Below, in pieces: positions 2,191 through 49,748 of a stretch of 64,000 nt of DNA (position 1 is its first letter; each line of letters starts with the position of its first letter). A program made the position numbers and the translations under genes. The notes beneath the pieces are model-generated. The model saw only the letters and a program-made list of their open reading frames with translations, was not told where the DNA came from and searched no databases. Source of the stretch: a virus (Duplodnaviria > Caudoviricetes); IMG/VR virus record IMGVR_UViG_3300047160_001842, positions 8,435 to 72,434 of that record; one strand, 5' to 3'.

Positions 2191-2403
2191 TCATGGGTAT
2201 TTTCTGCTGAACGTCGCCGTTCGCCGGTAGCACTTCGCCACCCGGTCGTACTCCATGTTGTCTGGCGCGGCCTCGATGTACGCGCGGATATCGAGGCTCG
2301 CTTGCGGAGTGGATAGGTCAAAGAAGCGTTCGATGGCGCTCCGGTTGACCGTTCCATACTCCTCTAGCATAACGTCGATGAACTTCAGCCGCCACTCTTT
2401 CAT
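2191..2403 (-). CDS. stand-alone winged-HTH resembling the N-terminal DNA-binding domain of CapW/BrxR-type WYL regulators
   Basis: RLKFID...GTVNRSAIERFFDLSTPQASLDIRAY...APDNMEYDRVAKCY; no WYL domain follows (70 aa). Confidence 0.7.
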   Translation of the reverse strand: MKEWRLKFIDVMLEEYGTVNRSAIERFFDLSTPQASLDIRAYIEAAPDNMEYDRVAKCYRRTATFSRKYP

Positions 2404-2480
2404 TTCGGGCCTTTCGGCAGAGGAGGCTTGGGAACCGGCATAGGGTCGCGCGGTTCCTGCGGCAGTGGGATGATGGTCAT
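2400..2480 (-). CDS. 26-aa proline-rich peptide MTIIPLPQEPRDPMPVPKPPLPKGPK
   Basis: Translated by hand; ATGA overlaps with both flanking genes. Confidence 0.55.
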   Translation of the reverse strand: MTIIPLPQEPRDPMPVPKPPLPKGPK

Positions 2481-3362: not shown

Positions 3363-3665
3363 TTAGAGCGGGCTATATGCCGCGACGTTGGTTTGGATGA
3401 GGTTGCTGACGGAGGTGTACGCGCCGACCGGAGCGCCCCACTGCTGTTCCGGATATCCGCCGGTCTTGAGTCTGCCGTACTCCCAGGAAGGAACGGCCTT
3501 GACTTTTTCCAAGAAGCGCTCGGCGCGGCGTCGATCCTTGAAAACTGCCGCGTGGGCGATGGTTTCCCAGAAGCTATCCGAGCAATCCCGGTAGATTCCT
3601 TGGATTTGGAAACCGGCAATCCCGGCGATGGTAACCTGCTTGATTTCGAGGTTGCGGATGGTCAT
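3363..3665 (-). CDS. early hypothetical protein (MTIRNLEIKQ...)
   Basis: Same leader and RBS as gene 1902-2123; first gene after a consensus promoter. Confidence 0.75.
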   Translation of the reverse strand: MTIRNLEIKQVTIAGIAGFQIQGIYRDCSDSFWETIAHAAVFKDRRRAERFLEKVKAVPSWEYGRLKTGGYPEQQWGAPVGAYTSVSNLIQTNVAAYSPL

Positions 3666-3691
3666 TTCAGTTCCTTGGTTGGTATGACGCA

Positions 3692-3720
3692 ATTATAGGT
3701 CAGAAATGAACGTTCGTCAA
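3692..3720 (-). promoter_or_regulatory. strong sigma70 promoter TTGACG-N17-TATAAT
   Basis: Near-perfect consensus with 17-bp spacer. Confidence 0.85.
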
Positions 3721-3726
3721 TACCCT

Positions 3727-4053
3727 TCATTCTGGTCTGATATTCAGAAACTCGCCGTGCTTCTCGCGCGCCTCGTCCACGACTAGCAGGTGGGCCTCCA
3801 GCGCCTTATCGTACCCCTCCACGATGATCGAGCCGTTGTCGCCGATCCTGACCGGCATCAGTTCGGGCGGGAAAGCGTAGGACGGATTGACGCCCGCCAC
3901 GAGCATGTGCAGCGAGCGCTTGCGCCAGAGGTCGCCGCCCTTCGTCAGCGTCACCTCGCCGTCCTGCCATACCTCGTACACCATGGAGTCCGCTTGGCGC
4001 TCCGGCTGGTGGAGGGATAGGAACCGGGTTAGGTTCGTTTCTTGTGTGTTCAT
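3727..4053 (-). CDS. hypothetical protein
   Basis: ATG at 4053 (MNTQETNLTR), 108 aa. Confidence 0.6.
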   Translation of the reverse strand: MNTQETNLTRFLSLHQPERQADSMVYEVWQDGEVTLTKGGDLWRKRSLHMLVAGVNPSYAFPPELMPVRIGDNGSIIVEGYDKALEAHLLVVDEAREKHGEFLNIRPE

Positions 4054-4139: not shown

Positions 4140-4733
4140 TCACCCGAAGAAGTTGCCACGGCATATCGGGCCGATCCCAAGCTCAATCGAGAGCGCGTTG
4201 GTGAGCGTCCGGCTGCAGACAGAGCAGGAGCCGTACTGACGCCCGTAGGCCACGGAGGTTTCCTCCGGATGTCCGCAAGCGTCGATGATGTCTGCTTCTG
4301 CCTCGACATCGCATTCGTAAGAGCGGAAGAAGTGACCGGCCTTGACCTTCCCGAGGTAGGTGCCGGCCTCGTCCTTGACGTAGAGCGCTCCGGCGTTCGA
4401 TCCGAAGGCTGGCGCCTGCGAGATGACGTAGGTGGCTCCGGCCTTGCTGAAAAGGCGCATCTTGGGGCGGTTGATCCCGTTTCCGTTGGCCCTCTCGAAA
4501 GCCTTCTCAATGAGAGATACGTCCACGGCGGATTCCGGCTTAGGCGCGGCTGGGGCCTTCGGGGCGGCGCACTTCTTCGCTGCCGCCATCTGACGCTCCG
4601 TGAGGAGTTTTCCGTGGTTGACTTGATCGCGGAGCGAAAGGGCGAATTCGAAGTTGGTGTTGTTCCACCACTTCGCGATATCCGGATGAACATCCTCAAA
4701 AGCGAGGAGGAAGGTGGTCTTGCTATCGGTCAT
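4140..4733 (-). CDS. DUF6011-like zinc-binding protein
   Basis: C-terminal YGRQYGSCSVCSRTLTNALSIELGIGPIC motif. Confidence 0.75.
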   Translation of the reverse strand: MTDSKTTFLLAFEDVHPDIAKWWNNTNFEFALSLRDQVNHGKLLTERQMAAAKKCAAPKAPAAPKPESAVDVSLIEKAFERANGNGINRPKMRLFSKAGATYVISQAPAFGSNAGALYVKDEAGTYLGKVKAGHFFRSYECDVEAEADIIDACGHPEETSVAYGRQYGSCSVCSRTLTNALSIELGIGPICRGNFFG

Positions 4734-4760: not shown

Positions 4761-4789
4761 ATTCTAGCGCCATTTCTGACGCTAGGCAA
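4761..4789 (-). promoter_or_regulatory. sigma70 promoter TTGCCT-N17-TAGAAT
   Basis: Reverse complement of 4784-4789 and 4761-4766. Confidence 0.7.
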
Positions 4790-5707: not shown

Positions 5708-7144
5708 ATGGGCCTCCCCCTTCTCAAGCCGACACTCCCGTTTCCAGAAGCGTCGAATTCACCGTCATATTATACGCTGAACGTCGCCCTTCGTCCATTC
5801 TGGGCGGCTCAGGCGCGGCACAAGATTCTTTATGGCGGGCGGGCATCCTCCAAGTCGCACGATGCCGCTGGGCACGCGATCTTCCTGGCGGCAAACTTCT
5901 GCGTGAAGTTCATGTGCGCGCGGCAGTTCCAGAACCGGATCAGCGAGAGCGTCTACACGTTGCTGAAGGACAAGATCAACACAAGCCCTTACAAGCGTGA
6001 GTTCGAAGTCCTCAAGACCAGCATACGCCACAAGCTGACCGGCAGCGAATTCCTGTTCTACGGTATCGCGCGGAACCTTGAGGAAATCAAGTCCACTGAG
6101 GGCGTCGATATCCTCTGGCTGGAAGAGGCTCACTATCTGACGGAGCTTCAATGGCAGGTCATTGAGCCGACGATCCGTAAGGACTGCTCGCAGGTCTGGC
6201 TGATCTTCAATCCGGCAGAGTTCACCGACTTCGTGTACCAGAACTTCGTCGTCAATCCTCCGGCAGACAGCATTGTTCGCGAAATCAACTGGCGTGAGAA
6301 TCCATACCTCTCCCAGACGATGCTCAAAGTCATCTATGATTACTACAAGCGCGAGCCGGAATCCGCGCGGCATGTCTACGGTGGCGAACCGAAGATGGGC
6401 GAGGACAAATCGGTCATCCCGCTCAAATACATCATTGCCGCCATTGACGCTCACAAGAAGCTCGATTGGACTGCTGGTGGTCAGCGGACCATCGGCTATG
6501 ACGTTGCCGATGACGGAGAGGACAAGAATGCTTGGGTCGAGTCCCACGGCAACATCATCATGAAGGCGGAGGAGTGGCAGGGCCTGGAGGATGAGTTACT
6601 CAAGTCGTGTGCGAAGGTCTACAACGTGGCCGTCCTCGCCAACGCGAACATTGTCTGGGACTCTATCGGCGTGGGAGCGTTCGCTGGATCGAAGTTCGCC
6701 GACCTCAACGCCGAACACAAACGCAAGGTCGTGTACGAACCGTTCAACGCTGGCGGCGCTGTGGAGAATCCCAAGGGCGCGTACATGAAGCTGCCGCACG
6801 TGACGATCACCAACGGTGAACACTTCAGCAACATCAAGGCGCAGAAGTGGGATGAGGTCGCCATACGCTTCCGGAGGACCTATGAGGCGGTGGAGCTTGG
6901 CGTCAAGCACCCGCTCGATGAACTGATCAGCCTCAACTCTGAGACGCTGGGCGCGACAATGCTGAAGAAAATTCAGCTGGAGCTGGCCTCGCCGCAGAAG
7001 GATATCGACAAGATGGGCAAGTTCAAAGTTGAGTCGAAAGAGGATATGCGCGAGAAACGCGGCATCAAGTCCCCCAACGTCGCCGATGCCCTCATCATGT
7101 CAATGATCCGGGTGAAGCGGAACCCTTCTACGTTCTTTGGTTGA
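5708..7144 (+). CDS. terL: terminase large subunit (PBSX-like)
   Basis: YGGRASSKS Walker A, WLEEAH Walker B, C-terminal nuclease GYDVADDG...KSPNVADA. Confidence 0.95.
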   Translation: MGLPLLKPTLPFPEASNSPSYYTLNVALRPFWAAQARHKILYGGRASSKSHDAAGHAIFLAANFCVKFMCARQFQNRISESVYTLLKDKINTSPYKREFEVLKTSIRHKLTGSEFLFYGIARNLEEIKSTEGVDILWLEEAHYLTELQWQVIEPTIRKDCSQVWLIFNPAEFTDFVYQNFVVNPPADSIVREINWRENPYLSQTMLKVIYDYYKREPESARHVYGGEPKMGEDKSVIPLKYIIAAIDAHKKLDWTAGGQRTIGYDVADDGEDKNAWVESHGNIIMKAEEWQGLEDELLKSCAKVYNVAVLANANIVWDSIGVGAFAGSKFADLNAEHKRKVVYEPFNAGGAVENPKGAYMKLPHVTITNGEHFSNIKAQKWDEVAIRFRRTYEAVELGVKHPLDELISLNSETLGATMLKKIQLELASPQKDIDKMGKFKVESKEDMREKRGIKSPNVADALIMSMIRVKRNPSTFFG

Positions 7145-8231: not shown

Positions 8232-8573
8232 TTAGCTTTCTTCTGGCAACGGGATGATCTTGTATTCGCGATCCGGGTTGATGTCCTGGAACGTCTTCAT
8301 GGACGACTCGGCATCCTCGCGCGAGTACGGGCCGATGAGAACCCACTCCGTCCAGACCATGGCGGAGGAGTAGTTGGCGCCGTCATAGCAACGCCGCTGT
8401 GGATCTGTGTTCACCTCCACCTGCTGACGGAAGTAGAGTTCAACCACTTCCTTCTTCAGCGGCAGGGCGATCTGGGCACTGCCGATCAGCGCGGCTACAG
8501 CCGCCATGCTGCGATTCTTTCGGGCCACTGACTTGTCCACTCCCGGCCCGATGCTGTATGTCTTGGCGGCCAT
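8232..8573 (-). CDS. hypothetical protein
   Basis: RBS AGGAG, 113 aa. Confidence 0.65.
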   Translation of the reverse strand: MAAKTYSIGPGVDKSVARKNRSMAAVAALIGSAQIALPLKKEVVELYFRQQVEVNTDPQRRCYDGANYSSAMVWTEWVLIGPYSREDAESSMKTFQDINPDREYKIIPLPEES

Positions 8574-10040: not shown

Positions 10041-13000
10041 ATGTTCAAAAAGATCGCCACTTGGCTCAACCCCAAGCAGGACTTTGTCGATGAAGCGAAA
10101 ACGCCGACTCCACCGACAGAGGCCAAGGCAGTCGATCCTCTCGATCCACTTGATGCAAAATCACGGCACACGCCGTGGCCTGAAGACAAGCTTGCCTTGG
10201 CCTTCGTCAAGGTTTCTGAATTCCCCACTTTCGACGGCCTTGCTGGCGGTGAAGTCCAGCAGGCGCGCGTCATGGATGGCGCCATCGCGAAGTCGAAAGC
10301 CACAATGGACATGCTCAGCGGCTCCAACGATAGCGAAGGGTCGCTGGGGCTTGCTATGAAGGGTGGTGGCTCGTTCCTCGGCGTTCCGGAGTCTCTTGGC
10401 CTCTGGTATATGTCGCAGGGCTTCTTCGGCTACCAGGCTTGCGCAATCATCGCCCAACATTGGCTCGTGGATAAGGCCTGCTCGATGTCCGGCGAAGATG
10501 CCGCGCGTAACGGGTGGGTTCTGTCCGCTCGCGGCGGTGATGAGGATTTGTCCAAGGAAGATCACGACAAGCTGCTGGCTGAGGACAAACGATTCAAGAT
10601 CAAAGAGAACCTGGTGGAGTTCAACCGGTTCAAGAATGTCTTCGGCATTCGCATCGCCATCTTCAAGGTCAAGTCGTCCGATCCGCTCTATTACGAAAAG
10701 CCGTTCAATCTCGACGGCTGCGGCATGGGCTGCTATGAGGGCATCTCCCAGGTGGACCCTTACTGGATGACGCCTGTGCTGACTTCGGCTGGTTCCAGCG
10801 ATCCGTCCACCATCGGCTTCTATGAGCCGCAGTACTGGGTGATCAACGGCAAGAAGTACCACATCAGCCACCTCGCAATCGTTCGTGGGCCGCAGCCAGC
10901 AGACATTCTGAAGCCCACGTACATCTTCGGCGGCATCCCGCTCACCCAGCGCATCTACGAACGGGTGTATGCAGCTGAGCGGACGGCCAACGAGTCTCCG
11001 CTGATGGCAATGTCCAAGCGGACAATGGCCATCCACGCCGACCTCGACAAGGTGTTGGCCAATCAGTGCGAGTTTGAGGAACGTCTCGCCCTGTGGATTA
11101 AGTACCGGGACAATCACGGCGTGAAGGTGCTTGGGACTGAAGAGTCCATGGAGCAGTTCGATACGTCGATGACGGACTTCGATTCCATCATCATGAACCA
11201 GTACCAACTGGTGGCGGCAATCGCGCGGACTCCGGCCACGAAGTTGCTTGGGACCTCGCCGAAGGGCTTCAACGCCACCGGTGAATTCGAGTCCAAGAGC
11301 TACCACGAGGAGTTGGAGAGCATCCAAGAGCACGTGATGCAACCAATGCTGGAGCGGCATTACGAGTTGTCTGCGCGCTCGATTGGCCTCCAAGTGCAAC
11401 TCGACGCCGTTTTCAATCCTGTCGATTCCGTCTCCACCAAGGAACGCGCCGACCTGAACAAGCTCAAGTCGGACATGGGCGTGGCGCTCATCAACGCAGG
11501 CGTTATCTCGCCAGAAGAGGAGCGCCAGCGTCTGCAAGACGATGAGCACAGCGGCTATGACCGCCTTGCGGAAGGACAAAGCGCTGAGACGGAGCCGGGG
11601 ATGTCGCCGGAGAATCTTGCGGCACTCCAAAAGGCTGGCGCCGCAGAAACGGCTGCAGAGAATCCAGCCGCTCCGAACCGGCCCCAACCCGGCGCGCGGG
11701 CGGACGTTGTAGAAAGTGTTCCTGGCCAATCGCCTGGGACGCTTGCGGCCCTCCTCCCACTCCTCCTCTCCGGTGTGTCTACGGACCCAGGAAAGCCGCC
11801 CGCCGACCCCACCATGGCAGCGCTGCTCCTCGTTCTGGCGAAGATGGCTGGCGCGACGGCTCCGGCGAATGACTCACCCACGAACGGATTCAGCGTTCAA
11901 CCGTCAGTCAAAGGATCGGTTAAGGGAGGCATCCAGCGCGGCATTGCCCAGGATGACGGCGAAGTCGTCCGAAAGATGCCGCAGCACAAGTTGCCGAAGA
12001 TGCGCTTGAACGGCCTCAACCTCGTCATCGAGAATCCGCGCGGAACGATCCGCACCGGTATCGATCTTGACGGCGTGGAGTGGGCTTCTCAAATGCCCGA
12101 CCACTACGGGTTCATCAAGGGATACATGGGTGCGGACGGCCAGGACGTGGACTGCTTCATCGGCCCCAACCTCCGTGCCAAGTACGTTTTCGTAATCTCA
12201 CAAAAGTGCCCTGAGACCGGTGAGTTTGACGAGTACAAGTGCATGTTGTGCTACGATACACCGGCGCACGCGGTCGCGACCTACAACATGGCGTACACGC
12301 CTGACTGGGACGGCTTCGATAGCCTGCTGGAGCCGATGGACTGGGACGAGTTCAAAGAGTGGCTGGAGTCTGGCGCGGCTGCAGAGGCTCCGGTGCATAC
12401 GATATCCATGGCAGATGCGGCCGAGTGGAAAGAGTCCGATCACCCGCGCGCCAAGAACGGTCAGTTTGGATCGGGTGGCGGCGGTGGAGGTGGCTCCAGC
12501 AACAAGGGCGGTCTGGGCTCGGAAAAGGCTGGCGGCCCCACGGCACTCAACAAGAAGCTCGGCGCCAAGAAGGACGCCCTGCCCGCGCTCGCGAAGTCGC
12601 TGCACGAAAAGACAGGCAAGATTCCATCATCGGCTGAGTTCCACAAAGCCGCAACGGAGATGGGCTTCAACATCATCCAGGCTCAGTCGGACAAGTACCT
12701 GAAGATGTACAAGCCGGGTGCTCCCGCTCCGTCAGCGCAAGCGGTCAAAGCTGCGGCTGCGGCACCGCTTCCGCCCGCCTCCGATCCGAAGCCGCCAGTG
12801 GCGCAACCGGCTCAGACGGTCCAGGCCGATCACAAGAAGGAATCGGCTGACCTTGCGAAGTTCTACAAGAAGGATTCGCCCACTGCGCTGGCCGAGTGGT
12901 ACGCTGGCGCCGTCGGATATCCCAAGGAAGGAGTCTACAACGGCATAGCCTACTTCAAGGCTGCGAGCGGTCAAAAGGTGAGCTACAAGGAAGACACGGA

Positions 13001-46954: not shown

Positions 46955-49748
46955 CGCCGTCCAGTCGCTTGATTCCGATGACGTTAAACATCTGGTATTC
47001 GCTCAGACGCTTCACCTTGATCAACCACCAGCTACCCTTCGGCGCACCTTCGGCGATGGCCTTGCCGTGGGACAGGTACATGTCGCGACCAATCCGGAAC
47101 CGCAGTGCGGAGTCTGACGAGTCATCAACCATAAACATGTCCAGGAAGATCGTTTGACCCTTGTAGACCTTCCCGCCGCGCTTTTTCACGCGGATCGGCT
47201 CGTTGGCGTCGGAGATGGTCTTGCTCATCAGCTTCGCGATCACCAAGCTGGTAACGCCATCCACGCAATCGGCCATGTTCATAATCGGCCTGCCGGACGT
47301 AACGCCAGCAAGCGCAGGGTCGCGGTAGTAGTGACCCCACTTGGTGTGCGCTTCGGCGAGGTCTGCATACTTGATCTCAGCGTTGGTGAGACGGTCCTTG
47401 TCCTTCTGAGTGAGTGTGCCCGCCTCTCGCTTCTGGACATAGGACAGCGCCTTGACCGGCCCATATCCCTTTGCATTCTGGATGCCTCCGATGAGTCGCC
47501 CGTCCGCCACCTTCCAATTCATGTCGCTGAAGTCCGGATCAATAGGCGTGTACTCGATCCCTTCGCGGCTGATCTCACGGAGAATCGCGATTGTCTGCTC
47601 ATCGTCCTTCGCGGCACGGAGGGAAGCTGCAGCGTACTCCAGAGGGAAGTAACGTTTGAGATAGCAAGTCCAATAGGTGACGATTGCATAACTGACGCTG
47701 TGCGACTTGTTGAAGCCCCAGGCTCCGAAGGTCGCCATTTCTGACCATATTTTCTTGGCTTCGGCTTCGGGGATGCCATTCGCCACAGCACCGGCCACGA
47801 AGTCCTGGCCGAGCTTGTTGAAGTATTCCTCGCCCTTGCGCCCAGACATCGCCTTACGCACGGTGGAGGTCTTCTGCCAGTCGAATGAGCCAAGCTCTTT
47901 CACCATCGACATGATCTGCTCTTGGTACAGAATCACGCCATAGGTGTTGCTGAGATACTTCTCAAGTTGCGGCACATCGTAGGTGATCGGCTCTTTTCCC
48001 GCCGCGCGTGCAATGTAGCGCTGGGCCATACCGGAGGAGAGCGGGCCGGGTCGCGCCAGCGCTGTGAGATGGTCGATCTTGCTGAAGTCGTCCACGTTCA
48101 CGGAGCGCGTAACGGATCGCACCGCATCGCCTTCGAATTGGAAGATGCCGGACACCTTATCCTCGTTGAGGATATCGAGCACGGACTTATCATCCAGCTT
48201 CAACCCGTACAACTCCTCTGCGGTGATAACACCGGCGTCCTCGATCACTCCGAGTGTCCGAAGGCCCAGGGCGTCAATCTTGAGCAAATTGAGGTATTCA
48301 GAGTCGGGCTTATCGATCTGCGCCACGCCGTCTTCCGTCACAGTGCAGTAGTCCGTCACCGGATCGTTACACACAAGGATGCCAGCCGCGTGGACGCCGG
48401 AGTGCGATGGATGAATCTCGATATCACCCATGCAGGCGGCAGCTTTAGGCCACTTGAGTTGGAAGTCCTTGCCAGGCTCCGTCTTCGTCATGGTGTCCTC
48501 CAGACCCTTCCCATAACGCTCGTCAGCGGACGAGTATTCGATGAGCGAGTTTCGGATGTTCGAAGTCTCCCAGACTGCAATGCCGAACTTCTTGCCGACT
48601 TGCGCGAGCACGGACGCGGCCTTGAGGGTGTTGATGTTCCCCAGCTTGGACACGTTATCTTTGCCGTACTTGTTCTGCAGGTACTCGAACACCAGGTGGC
48701 GCTTCGTGTCGGTGAAGTCGATGTCGATATCCGGAAGGTCTGCGCGGCTGATATCGATGAAGCGATGGAAGAGGAGCTGGTGCGGGAGCGGATCGACTTC
48801 AGTGATGCCGATGAGGTAACAGATCAAAGAGCCAGCGGAGGAGCCGCGTGCAGGTCCGACCAGCATATGCTCCTTGGCGTAGCGCACGAGGTCCGACACC
48901 ACCAGAAAGTAGCTGTCGAACTTCTTGAGTTTGATCTGGTCTAGCTCAAGCTTGAACCGCTCCTCGTACACCTGAGTCCACTCGGCGATATGCCCACGCG
49001 CTAGGCGGGAGGCTTGGCCCTCGCGGGCGAGCGCTTCTAGGTCGCCGTCCAAGTAGATAAGCGGAGCCTTGGCTAGGATGTGTCCCTGGAGGCTTTCGGC
49101 GACGGCGCGGGTATTCGCCCCAGCCTCTTCGAACTCGTCTCTGGACATTACCTCTTGGAGGACGCTCCACATCTCCTCCTCGCTCGCAATCCACCTCATG
49201 CCCACAGAGTCGCGAACCTCCCAAGCGTGGGCGAACGGCTCGTGCTTCTTGTCCGGCATGTCGTTGTATGACGTCAAAACCATCGGCTTGCCTGTCTGTC
49301 GCGCTAGTCGGACGGCCTTGGCTGCGTGGAGGTAAGAGGACGGGTTAACGTCGATGTAATCGTATGCGTCTTCAGGAAGGTCCAGGGCGCCACCGATGAA
49401 GCGGATGAGACCTGGGGCTGCGGCCAGTTCCTCCGGTGTCGCTCCGCCATTCCTAACCACGCGGCTGGTGAAGTTGTAGAGCTTCTTCGTATCGGTGGCG
49501 AGCACCCATGCGACAGGCTTGAATCCGTTGTCCGGGTTGATGATCGGGACTTCCATCCCGAACATCGGATGCATCTCGGCTTTCTTGAGTGCCTGTTCGA
49601 AGCGGACATGACCCCAAGTGCCGTGATCGACTAGACCAGCGCTGGTGACGCCTAGCTCCTTCAGTTTGGTCACTATCTCCGGCATTCGCCCGTAGGCGTT
49701 GCGGTAGGAGTAGCCTGAGCGGACGCGGAGTTGCGGCAGAGTGGTCAT
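46938..49748 (-). CDS. dnaE: DNA polymerase III alpha-like (family C)
   Basis: GPARGSSAGS, DLPDIDIDF, LLKIDALGL, FNKSH motifs. Confidence 0.95.
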   Translation of the reverse strand: MTTLPQLRVRSGYSYRNAYGRMPEIVTKLKELGVTSAGLVDHGTWGHVRFEQALKKAEMHPMFGMEVPIINPDNGFKPVAWVLATDTKKLYNFTSRVVRNGGATPEELAAAPGLIRFIGGALDLPEDAYDYIDVNPSSYLHAAKAVRLARQTGKPMVLTSYNDMPDKKHEPFAHAWEVRDSVGMRWIASEEEMWSVLQEVMSRDEFEEAGANTRAVAESLQGHILAKAPLIYLDGDLEALAREGQASRLARGHIAEWTQVYEERFKLELDQIKLKKFDSYFLVVSDLVRYAKEHMLVGPARGSSAGSLICYLIGITEVDPLPHQLLFHRFIDISRADLPDIDIDFTDTKRHLVFEYLQNKYGKDNVSKLGNINTLKAASVLAQVGKKFGIAVWETSNIRNSLIEYSSADERYGKGLEDTMTKTEPGKDFQLKWPKAAACMGDIEIHPSHSGVHAAGILVCNDPVTDYCTVTEDGVAQIDKPDSEYLNLLKIDALGLRTLGVIEDAGVITAEELYGLKLDDKSVLDILNEDKVSGIFQFEGDAVRSVTRSVNVDDFSKIDHLTALARPGPLSSGMAQRYIARAAGKEPITYDVPQLEKYLSNTYGVILYQEQIMSMVKELGSFDWQKTSTVRKAMSGRKGEEYFNKLGQDFVAGAVANGIPEAEAKKIWSEMATFGAWGFNKSHSVSYAIVTYWTCYLKRYFPLEYAAASLRAAKDDEQTIAILREISREGIEYTPIDPDFSDMNWKVADGRLIGGIQNAKGYGPVKALSYVQKREAGTLTQKDKDRLTNAEIKYADLAEAHTKWGHYYRDPALAGVTSGRPIMNMADCVDGVTSLVIAKLMSKTISDANEPIRVKKRGGKVYKGQTIFLDMFMVDDSSDSALRFRIGRDMYLSHGKAIAEGAPKGSWWLIKVKRLSEYQMFNVIGIKRLDGDVETA

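Follow-up and report, generated by a model that had tools for sequence, protein, structure and literature searches.

A CapW/BrxR-type winged helix without a sensor in the early region of a soil phage: a possible non-inducible repressor of host defense operons

Introduction

Many anti-phage systems are switched by WYL repressors (CapW, BrxR, and their relatives), and the purpose of this induction is a matter of current work. CapW and BrxR bind DNA as domain-swapped dimers, in which the linker, WYL, and WCX regions keep the two chains together (PMC9122588), and CapW is released by a single-stranded DNA (ssDNA) signal (PMC11662680). Binding by full CapW dimers occurs at only 0.3-3 µM (PMC9122588, PMC11662680). 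The contact of each BrxR head with DNA covers 11 bp and buries about 870 Å2. For Escherichia fergusonii BrxR, a single half-site is enough for both binding and repression (PMC9122601). Parallel WYL repressors can lack crosstalk.

Sensing of ssDNA was shown in 2024, and the priming of survivors has been described in a 2025-26 preprint. For E. coli CBASS, de-repression is unnecessary to stop a first lytic infection (PMC11662680). Induction of V. cholerae BREX is likewise dispensable against a first lytic infection and primes the survivors for later attacks.

Here we describe a phage protein that consists of the DNA-binding head of these repressors and nothing else. In the literature we found no paper describing a phage-encoded CapW/BrxR head without a WYL domain.

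Results

A 70-residue protein with the CapW/BrxR fold

The gene belongs to a lytic-type soil phage (G+C 58%) whose record of 72,434 bp shows direct terminal repeats and is estimated to be 100% complete. The window that we analyzed is the 64,000-nt stretch from base 8435 to base 72434 of this record, and coordinates refer to the window unless stated otherwise. The terminase and head genes have about 70-75% DNA identity to those of Pseudomonas PB1-like myoviruses and Serratia phage SMP. On the minus strand, an open reading frame of 70 codons at 2191-2403 (ATG start; stop codon at 2191-2193) encodes a winged helix-turn-helix (wHTH) protein, P0001. Its translation contains the motif, from RLKFID through K.Y, that an initial annotation had likened to the N-terminal wHTH of CapW/BrxR regulators. 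Six further metagenome contigs encode copies identical in protein sequence.

Both sequence and fold bear out this likeness. With phmmer, the matches of P0001 in the PDB are CapW from Pseudomonas aeruginosa (7TB5, E = 5.7e-14), Stenotrophomonas maltophilia (7TB6, E = 2.5e-11), and Rhizobium leguminosarum (9C5G, E = 3.1e-11) and BrxR from E. fergusonii (7QFZ, E = 0.0065), all ungapped and all on N-terminal chain residues ~12-92. The Pfam family precomputed for P0001 in the protein collection is WHD_BrxR (PF26109). There was no significant match in a Pfam set without PF26109, in PADLOC, or in NCBIfam (best NCBIfam E = 0.11), and a PHROGs scan gave a single, non-significant match (phrog_12251, E = 0.22). 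The AlphaFold2 model, built on an alignment of 32 short homologs, has a pLDDT of 97.1 and a helix-helix-helix-wing arrangement: helices at residues 2-16 and 21-28, the recognition helix at 32-45, and wing strands at 50-53 and 58-61. Foldseek superposes it on 7TB5 with a TM score of 0.97 and an rmsd of 0.5 Å; 7TB6, 7QFZ, 9C5G, and 7T8K follow, and unrelated winged helices appear only from E values of at least 0.01. The HMM and structure comparisons that the initial annotation had proposed as a check thus lead to the family that it had named.

Over the three CapW structures (7TB5, from P. aeruginosa PA17, 7TB6, and 9C5G), P0001 has 41-48% identity, TM scores of 0.94-0.97, and rmsd values of 0.5-0.7 Å. 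The recognition helix is nearly identical, and the R/S/Q/S residues that bind DNA are the same. BrxR (7QFZ, 7T8K/7T8L) shares the WHD_BrxR head and its fold (TM 0.87-0.95) but is more distant from P0001 than CapW is, with 29% identity and the weakest of the phmmer scores above, and its SRQQ reading motif does not occur in P0001.

The sensor is missing from the whole phage

No WYL domain had been noticed in or next to the gene, and its absence extends to the complete phage. The WYL model of Pfam (PF13280) has no match in a six-frame search of the whole 72,434-bp record. When three full-length CapWs are compared with the whole phage by tblastn, only their first ~80-90 residues align, at genome positions 10631-10861; there is no other match with E below 0.3 and no WYL remnant 3′ of the wHTH gene. 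The stop codon is followed instead by a promoter and an unrelated 73-aa gene. A WCX domain is absent as well, the sequence of P0001 stopping at residue 70. Since the published limits of R. leguminosarum CapW are 1-70 for the wHTH and 71-136 for the linker (PMC11662680), P0001 ends at the boundary of head and linker.

P0001 is a CapW/BrxR-type wHTH without a sensor. Relative to CapW it has no linker, WYL, or WCX, and so neither the ssDNA sensor nor the domain-swapped dimer; the same domains are missing relative to BrxR. With only one of the three defining domains, it falls outside the wHTH-WYL-WCX regulator family and belongs to the WHD_BrxR domain family and to a stand-alone, phage-borne lineage.

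Short forms constitute a lineage of their own

A protein that lacks two of the three domains of its parent family might be the functionless, decaying remnant of a captured full-length capW, an origin that we regard as very improbable. We searched 1.84 billion representatives exhaustively with phmmer and obtained 502 matches at E ≤ 1e-3. Among the best 150, about one-third have lengths of 65-115 aa and match up to their own C terminus. These short forms have a common C-terminal F-x-R-x-(W/Y/F)-P (FSRKYP in P0001), and more than 60 of their representatives, clustered at 50% identity, stop at the same boundary. Such a common end argues against decay, as do the separation of the short-form lineages from the long forms (see below), the occurrence of the identical protein on several independent metagenome contigs, the lack of any WYL trace 3′ of the gene, and the confidence with which the model folds.

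All 13 relatives on IMG/VR contigs, which were found with a six-row alignment (a single-protein scan gave none), are short forms. Among 22 relatives in GTDB genomes, 20 are full length or nearly so and one more (L039) is cut by a contig end; the last, from a contig of a Frateuria MAG, is a short form with phage-type genes on both sides. When a maximum-likelihood tree is built from the head domain, one clade (SH-aLRT 96) takes in 55 of 56 long forms and also two rows that represent long forms cut at contig ends. The short forms are placed outside it, and the short/long label requires four changes on the tree compared with ~40 when the labels are shuffled; the tree comes from a quick search on 79 columns and leaves the deep order unsettled. 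Judged from these sequences, P0001 belongs to a separate stand-alone lineage and is not a recent truncation.

Among cultured phages (50,697 records, searched by tblastn with three different short homologs), the sole match is in Stenotrophomonas phage Sonora (Mesyanzhinovviridae): CPT_Sonora_088, a protein of 75 aa that is annotated as hypothetical and encoded among small overlapping genes. Other short homologs, too, are found in arrays of small co-directional ORFs. The stand-alone phage proteins (CPT_Sonora_088 and those of loci L005-L017) share with P0001 the length class, the C-terminal boundary, and the setting in small-gene arrays; like it, they have no Trp15, have Tyr16, and are basic at positions 61 and 67. 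They are, however, only 38-66% identical to it and lie in unrelated phage backbones, and a comparison of plus-strand ORFs found no neighboring gene common to the 14 phage loci.

DNA-reading residues are conserved in short and long forms

In S. maltophilia CapW, the substitution R32A and the triple substitution S42A/Q45A/S47A each abolish operator binding (PMC9122588). The equivalent residues in an ungapped alignment are R21, S31, Q34, and S36 of P0001, so that all four are kept. Column-by-column comparison of 61 short and 56 long homologs shows a matching residue at similar frequency (mostly ≥90%) in both classes at R5, R21, S31, Q34, S36, D38, Y42, N49, Y52, K57, and Y59. Nine successive residues (STPQASLDI) are identical in P0001 and in the CapWs of Chromobacterium and Dechloromonas.

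Every one of the 56 long forms has Trp15. Short forms have His, Gln, or Glu at this position, and Tyr16 is typical of them; P0001 has Glu15 and Tyr16. Further changes from the long to the short class are Glu7 to Arg, Arg12 to Leu, Asp23 to Ala, Ala61 to Arg or Lys, and Pro67 to Arg. The loss of Trp15 would correspond to the loss of the surface that packs on the rest of CapW. As a class, the short forms are more basic than the long ones (P = 4e-4, the rows not being independent). We considered that the extra positive charge might offset the avidity lost with the dimer; this is true of the class and not of P0001, whose net charge over the domain is 0.

These residues bear on a reading in which P0001 acts on the host other than at defense operons, either by reprogramming non-defense genes at sites that may or may not be CapW-like, or by contact with a protein. 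It might, for instance, take the place of a head in a CapW/BrxR dimer of the host and so disturb regulation. The head of CapW packs on the WYL domain of its partner (PMC9122588, PMC11662680), so a free head could in principle compete there, and the wHTH-WYL-WCX proteins include the DNA-damage regulators PafBC and DriD (PMC9122588). Yet the polar residues that take the place of Trp15 in short forms suggest that the CapW-facing surface has been given up, and the strong conservation of the DNA contacts suggests that selection has acted on DNA binding. We regard such an action as improbable.

Full-length relatives share an operator beside defense operons

Most full-length relatives have in their upstream region an imperfect palindrome, ACG(T/C)ATA-N5-TATACG(T/C), and a second site (GCGTAAAG-TTTTT-ATACGT) is often present ~30 bp further on (~32 bp). 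In loci L019-L039, an operator-like palindrome ACGTATA-N5-TATACGT lies about 30-130 bp upstream of capW; it is found in Pseudomonadota, Acidobacteriota, and SAR324, with capW on one side and a divergent Wadjet or CBASS operon on the other. We built a half-site matrix (PWM) from 19 of these upstream sites, and in the untrained loci L024, L037, L038, and L039 (one SAR324, Geothrix, and two Bryobacterales) its best match is again just upstream of capW. The published probe for CapW of E. coli upec-117 contains CGTATA-ATAAT-GCTACG (PMC11662680). This site fits the same consensus and overlaps a TATAAT box, an overlap that has been reported for CapW sites (PMC9122588).

The divergent neighbors are Wadjet genes (JetA/JetC) in five loci and CBASS genes in two, with a cyclase and a phospholipase in one and a cyclase and TRIP13 in the other. 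On account of these neighbors and of the common operator, we take the bacterial proteins that carry the P0001-like reading helix (STPQASLDI) to be repressors of defense operons. That the closest full-length relatives stand beside Wadjet or CBASS, with one operator common to several phyla, is newly seen here.

The early region has its own promoters and repeats

The wHTH gene lies in an early region with a set of minus-strand sigma70-like promoters, as seen in a promoter scan. The nearest consensus promoter upstream of it is a strong one at 3692-3720 on the minus strand (TTGACG-17-TATAAT, 11 of 12 matches); being the nearest, it probably drives five small genes and the wHTH gene as one co-transcribed unit. 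A weak Shine-Dalgarno-like AAAGG can be read at 2410-2414 (minus strand), six bases before the ATG. Right after the wHTH stop codon, at 2150-2178 on the minus strand, promoter alignment and repeat families D2 and D4 place another early promoter, with a TAGAAT -10 box and the 9-mer TCAGAAATG in its spacer. This promoter would mark the 3′ boundary of the unit and drive the 73-aa gene that follows. The same cluster contains genes for a DUF2786/DUF7168 protein (149-922), a NUDIX hydrolase (949-1401), and a DUF6011 protein (4140-4733), together with many small ORFs that have no recorded family; for the genes upstream of the wHTH gene, no Pfam family is on record.

Two blocks of 41 nt, at 2115-2155 and 3657-3697, are duplicates of each other with 88% identity and contain the -10 box, leader, and ribosome-binding site (CATACCAACCAAGGAACTGAAATG) of two early genes; promoter-leader cassettes have therefore been copied within the early region.

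The gap of 73 nt that immediately precedes the wHTH gene has an RNA folding energy of -19.8 kcal/mol and contains a hairpin or inverted repeat, GGAACCG-N13-CGGTTCC (2431-2457, minus strand; repeat family D17), that may act as an RNA element or as a binding site. It has a relative at 4011-4037: both GGAACC...GGTTCC hairpins occupy intergenic gaps of early operons, and no U-tract follows.

The 9-mer TCAGAAATG (CATTTCTGA on the plus strand) occurs in five exact copies compared with 0.47 expected, at 53-61, 2159-2167, 3700-3708 (minus strand), 4771-4779, and 47736-47744. It lies in the spacer between the -35 and -10 boxes of three early promoters, inverted in one of them. The repeat is a real feature and might be the site of some phage protein. 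As the common target of the wHTH family it was rejected, being phage-specific and without likeness to a CapW half-site.

No CapW-type operator is found in phage DNA

With the PWM, the best match in the whole 72-kb phage reaches 12.1 bits, inside the range of 8.9-16.8 bits attained by 30 shuffles; the training sites reach 17-25 bits in 17 of 19 cases. Nor does the PWM find a CapW operator near the gene in the 13 other phage loci or in Sonora. The half-site RCGTATA occurs 10 times in the window compared with 3.5 expected, a number reached by one of 100 shuffles. The copies are scattered, and only one, at 5771-5777 within the terminase gene, coincides with a promoter-like site. That site (TGGACG-17-TATAAT; 5769-5797, minus strand) points into the early region from inside the start of the gene for the terminase large subunit (5708-7144, plus strand), and its -10 region, GCGTATAAT, looks like a CapW half-site joined to a -10 box. 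Elsewhere, at 61714-61723, a perfect 10-bp palindrome, ACGTATACGT, amounts to two abutting CapW-type half-sites without spacer; it is probably a chance occurrence. A search for palindromes common to the phage loci gave none above shuffled sequence, with an insensitive test in which the bacterial loci, as positive control, were also weak. The lack of the operator in the phage loci is a second new observation, and a third is that the motif CATTTCTGA does not follow the gene family.

Small HTH proteins of phages are usually regulators of phage genes. P0001 might accordingly be the phage's own transcription regulator, setting the time of early shut-off or acting on its own operon in the manner of Aca proteins, with a likeness to CapW that reflects ancestry only. 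The over-represented TCAGAAATG in promoter spacers, one copy of it inverted, would suit a protein that binds as a monomer; the hairpin sits directly upstream of the wHTH gene; and the half-site RCGTATA has its mild excess. Against these stand the lack of a CapW-type palindrome anywhere in the phage and, in the insensitive comparison above, of a palindrome common to the phage loci beyond chance. The wHTH gene is the last of its operon and not at a divergent promoter, and no conserved neighbor gene offers itself as a regulatory target. Furthermore, TCAGAAATG is absent from 11 of the 13 other loci with a gene of this family, whose products nevertheless have conserved DNA-reading residues, and it is unlike the CapW half-site; for these reasons we do not link it to P0001. 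Regulation of the phage's own genes is on balance unlikely.

The initial annotation had offered, as its alternative, an Aca-like autoregulator acting on CATTTCTGA. We find no support for this, as there is no palindromic operator at the promoters of the gene and in other phages the motif is not associated with the family. With the anti-CRISPR-associated (Aca) HTH autorepressors, P0001 shares the character of a small phage DNA-binding protein among accessory genes. It differs in its HTH family and seems to differ in an operon promoter (3692-3720) that shows no operator-like palindrome or CapW-type site and in the lack of a recognized anti-defense gene upstream; the hairpin at 2431-2457 could still be a binding site.

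Discussion

P0001 differs from its CapW relatives in setting as well as in length: They adjoin a defense operon and have a palindromic operator over the promoter, and it is the product of a phage early gene with no cognate operator nearby. Since the residues for CapW-like recognition are kept and the operator is missing in the phage, the target may well lie off the phage, at CapW-type operators of the host. We consider it possible, at somewhat under even chances, that P0001 is a non-inducible repressor aimed at such operators, and we favor this target over self-regulation of the phage. The location of the gene in an early array with sigma70-like promoters agrees with the proposal.

The course of events might be as follows. 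P0001 would be made early, from host-type promoters, as a sequence-specific DNA-binding protein that has only the winged helix of CapW/BrxR. Because the residues that contact bases and backbone are kept, it most likely reads the half-site of the CapW clade (TATACG-type; in hosts, ACGTATA-N5-TATACGT over the -10 box of the defense promoter). With the linker, WYL, and WCX all missing, ssDNA could not release it. It would then stand in for the host repressor, or compete with it, and operons under CapW/BrxR control (CBASS, Wadjet, and others) would be kept at or below their basal level during and after infection. The binding to a host operator, the oligomeric form in which it takes place, and the benefit to the phage are what we infer from these comparisons.

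This is in essence what the initial annotation had suggested when it proposed a jammer of defense induction. Its sensor-less wHTH stands, and the function, which was and is conjectural, has become more plausible through the contact residues, the operator of the relatives, and the lack of any such operator in the phage.

Several considerations weigh on the other side. A lone head without linker, WYL, and WCX may bind too weakly, given the modest affinity of even the full dimers, and the net charge of 0 also counts against P0001. The large surface buried by a single BrxR head, and the sufficiency of one half-site for BrxR, weigh in the opposite direction. Because in E. coli and V. cholerae a first infection is stopped without de-repression, blocking induction would bring the phage an indirect benefit. 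Operator specificity is perhaps narrower than the conserved residues suggest, since parallel WYL repressors can lack crosstalk. Wadjet, the commonest neighbor of the close relatives, acts chiefly on plasmids.

Because the operator of the CapW clade is conserved across phyla, one small protein could serve in many hosts. More tentatively, then, the sensor-less head might be a broad-spectrum transcriptional anti-defense factor that locks CapW-controlled operons off in many hosts and blocks the priming of survivors, a broader proposal to which we give less credence than to repression as such. If it held, such heads would make up a new class of counter-defense that acts on regulation instead of on the effector, the first known at the level of the WYL repressor, and a natural tool for asking when induction matters. 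The near-universal operator of the CapW clade beside Wadjet and CBASS makes the idea directly testable, and a cultured pair exists in Sonora and its host S. maltophilia, a species with a characterized CapW. Should P0001 bind phage DNA only, it would be an ordinary small phage regulator of unusual ancestry.

Phage H-NS-like silencers offer an analogy in the proposed logic only, that of a phage copy of a host silencer keeping host genes off; their fold is unrelated and their binding is not sequence-specific. The link between the two is adjacency in one lineage. At L042 (5684-6300) and L043 (248-864), a 101-aa H-NS-like gene (PF00816) lies directly upstream of a 99-aa stand-alone WHD_BrxR gene, and the pair may constitute a two-gene module of DNA silencers.
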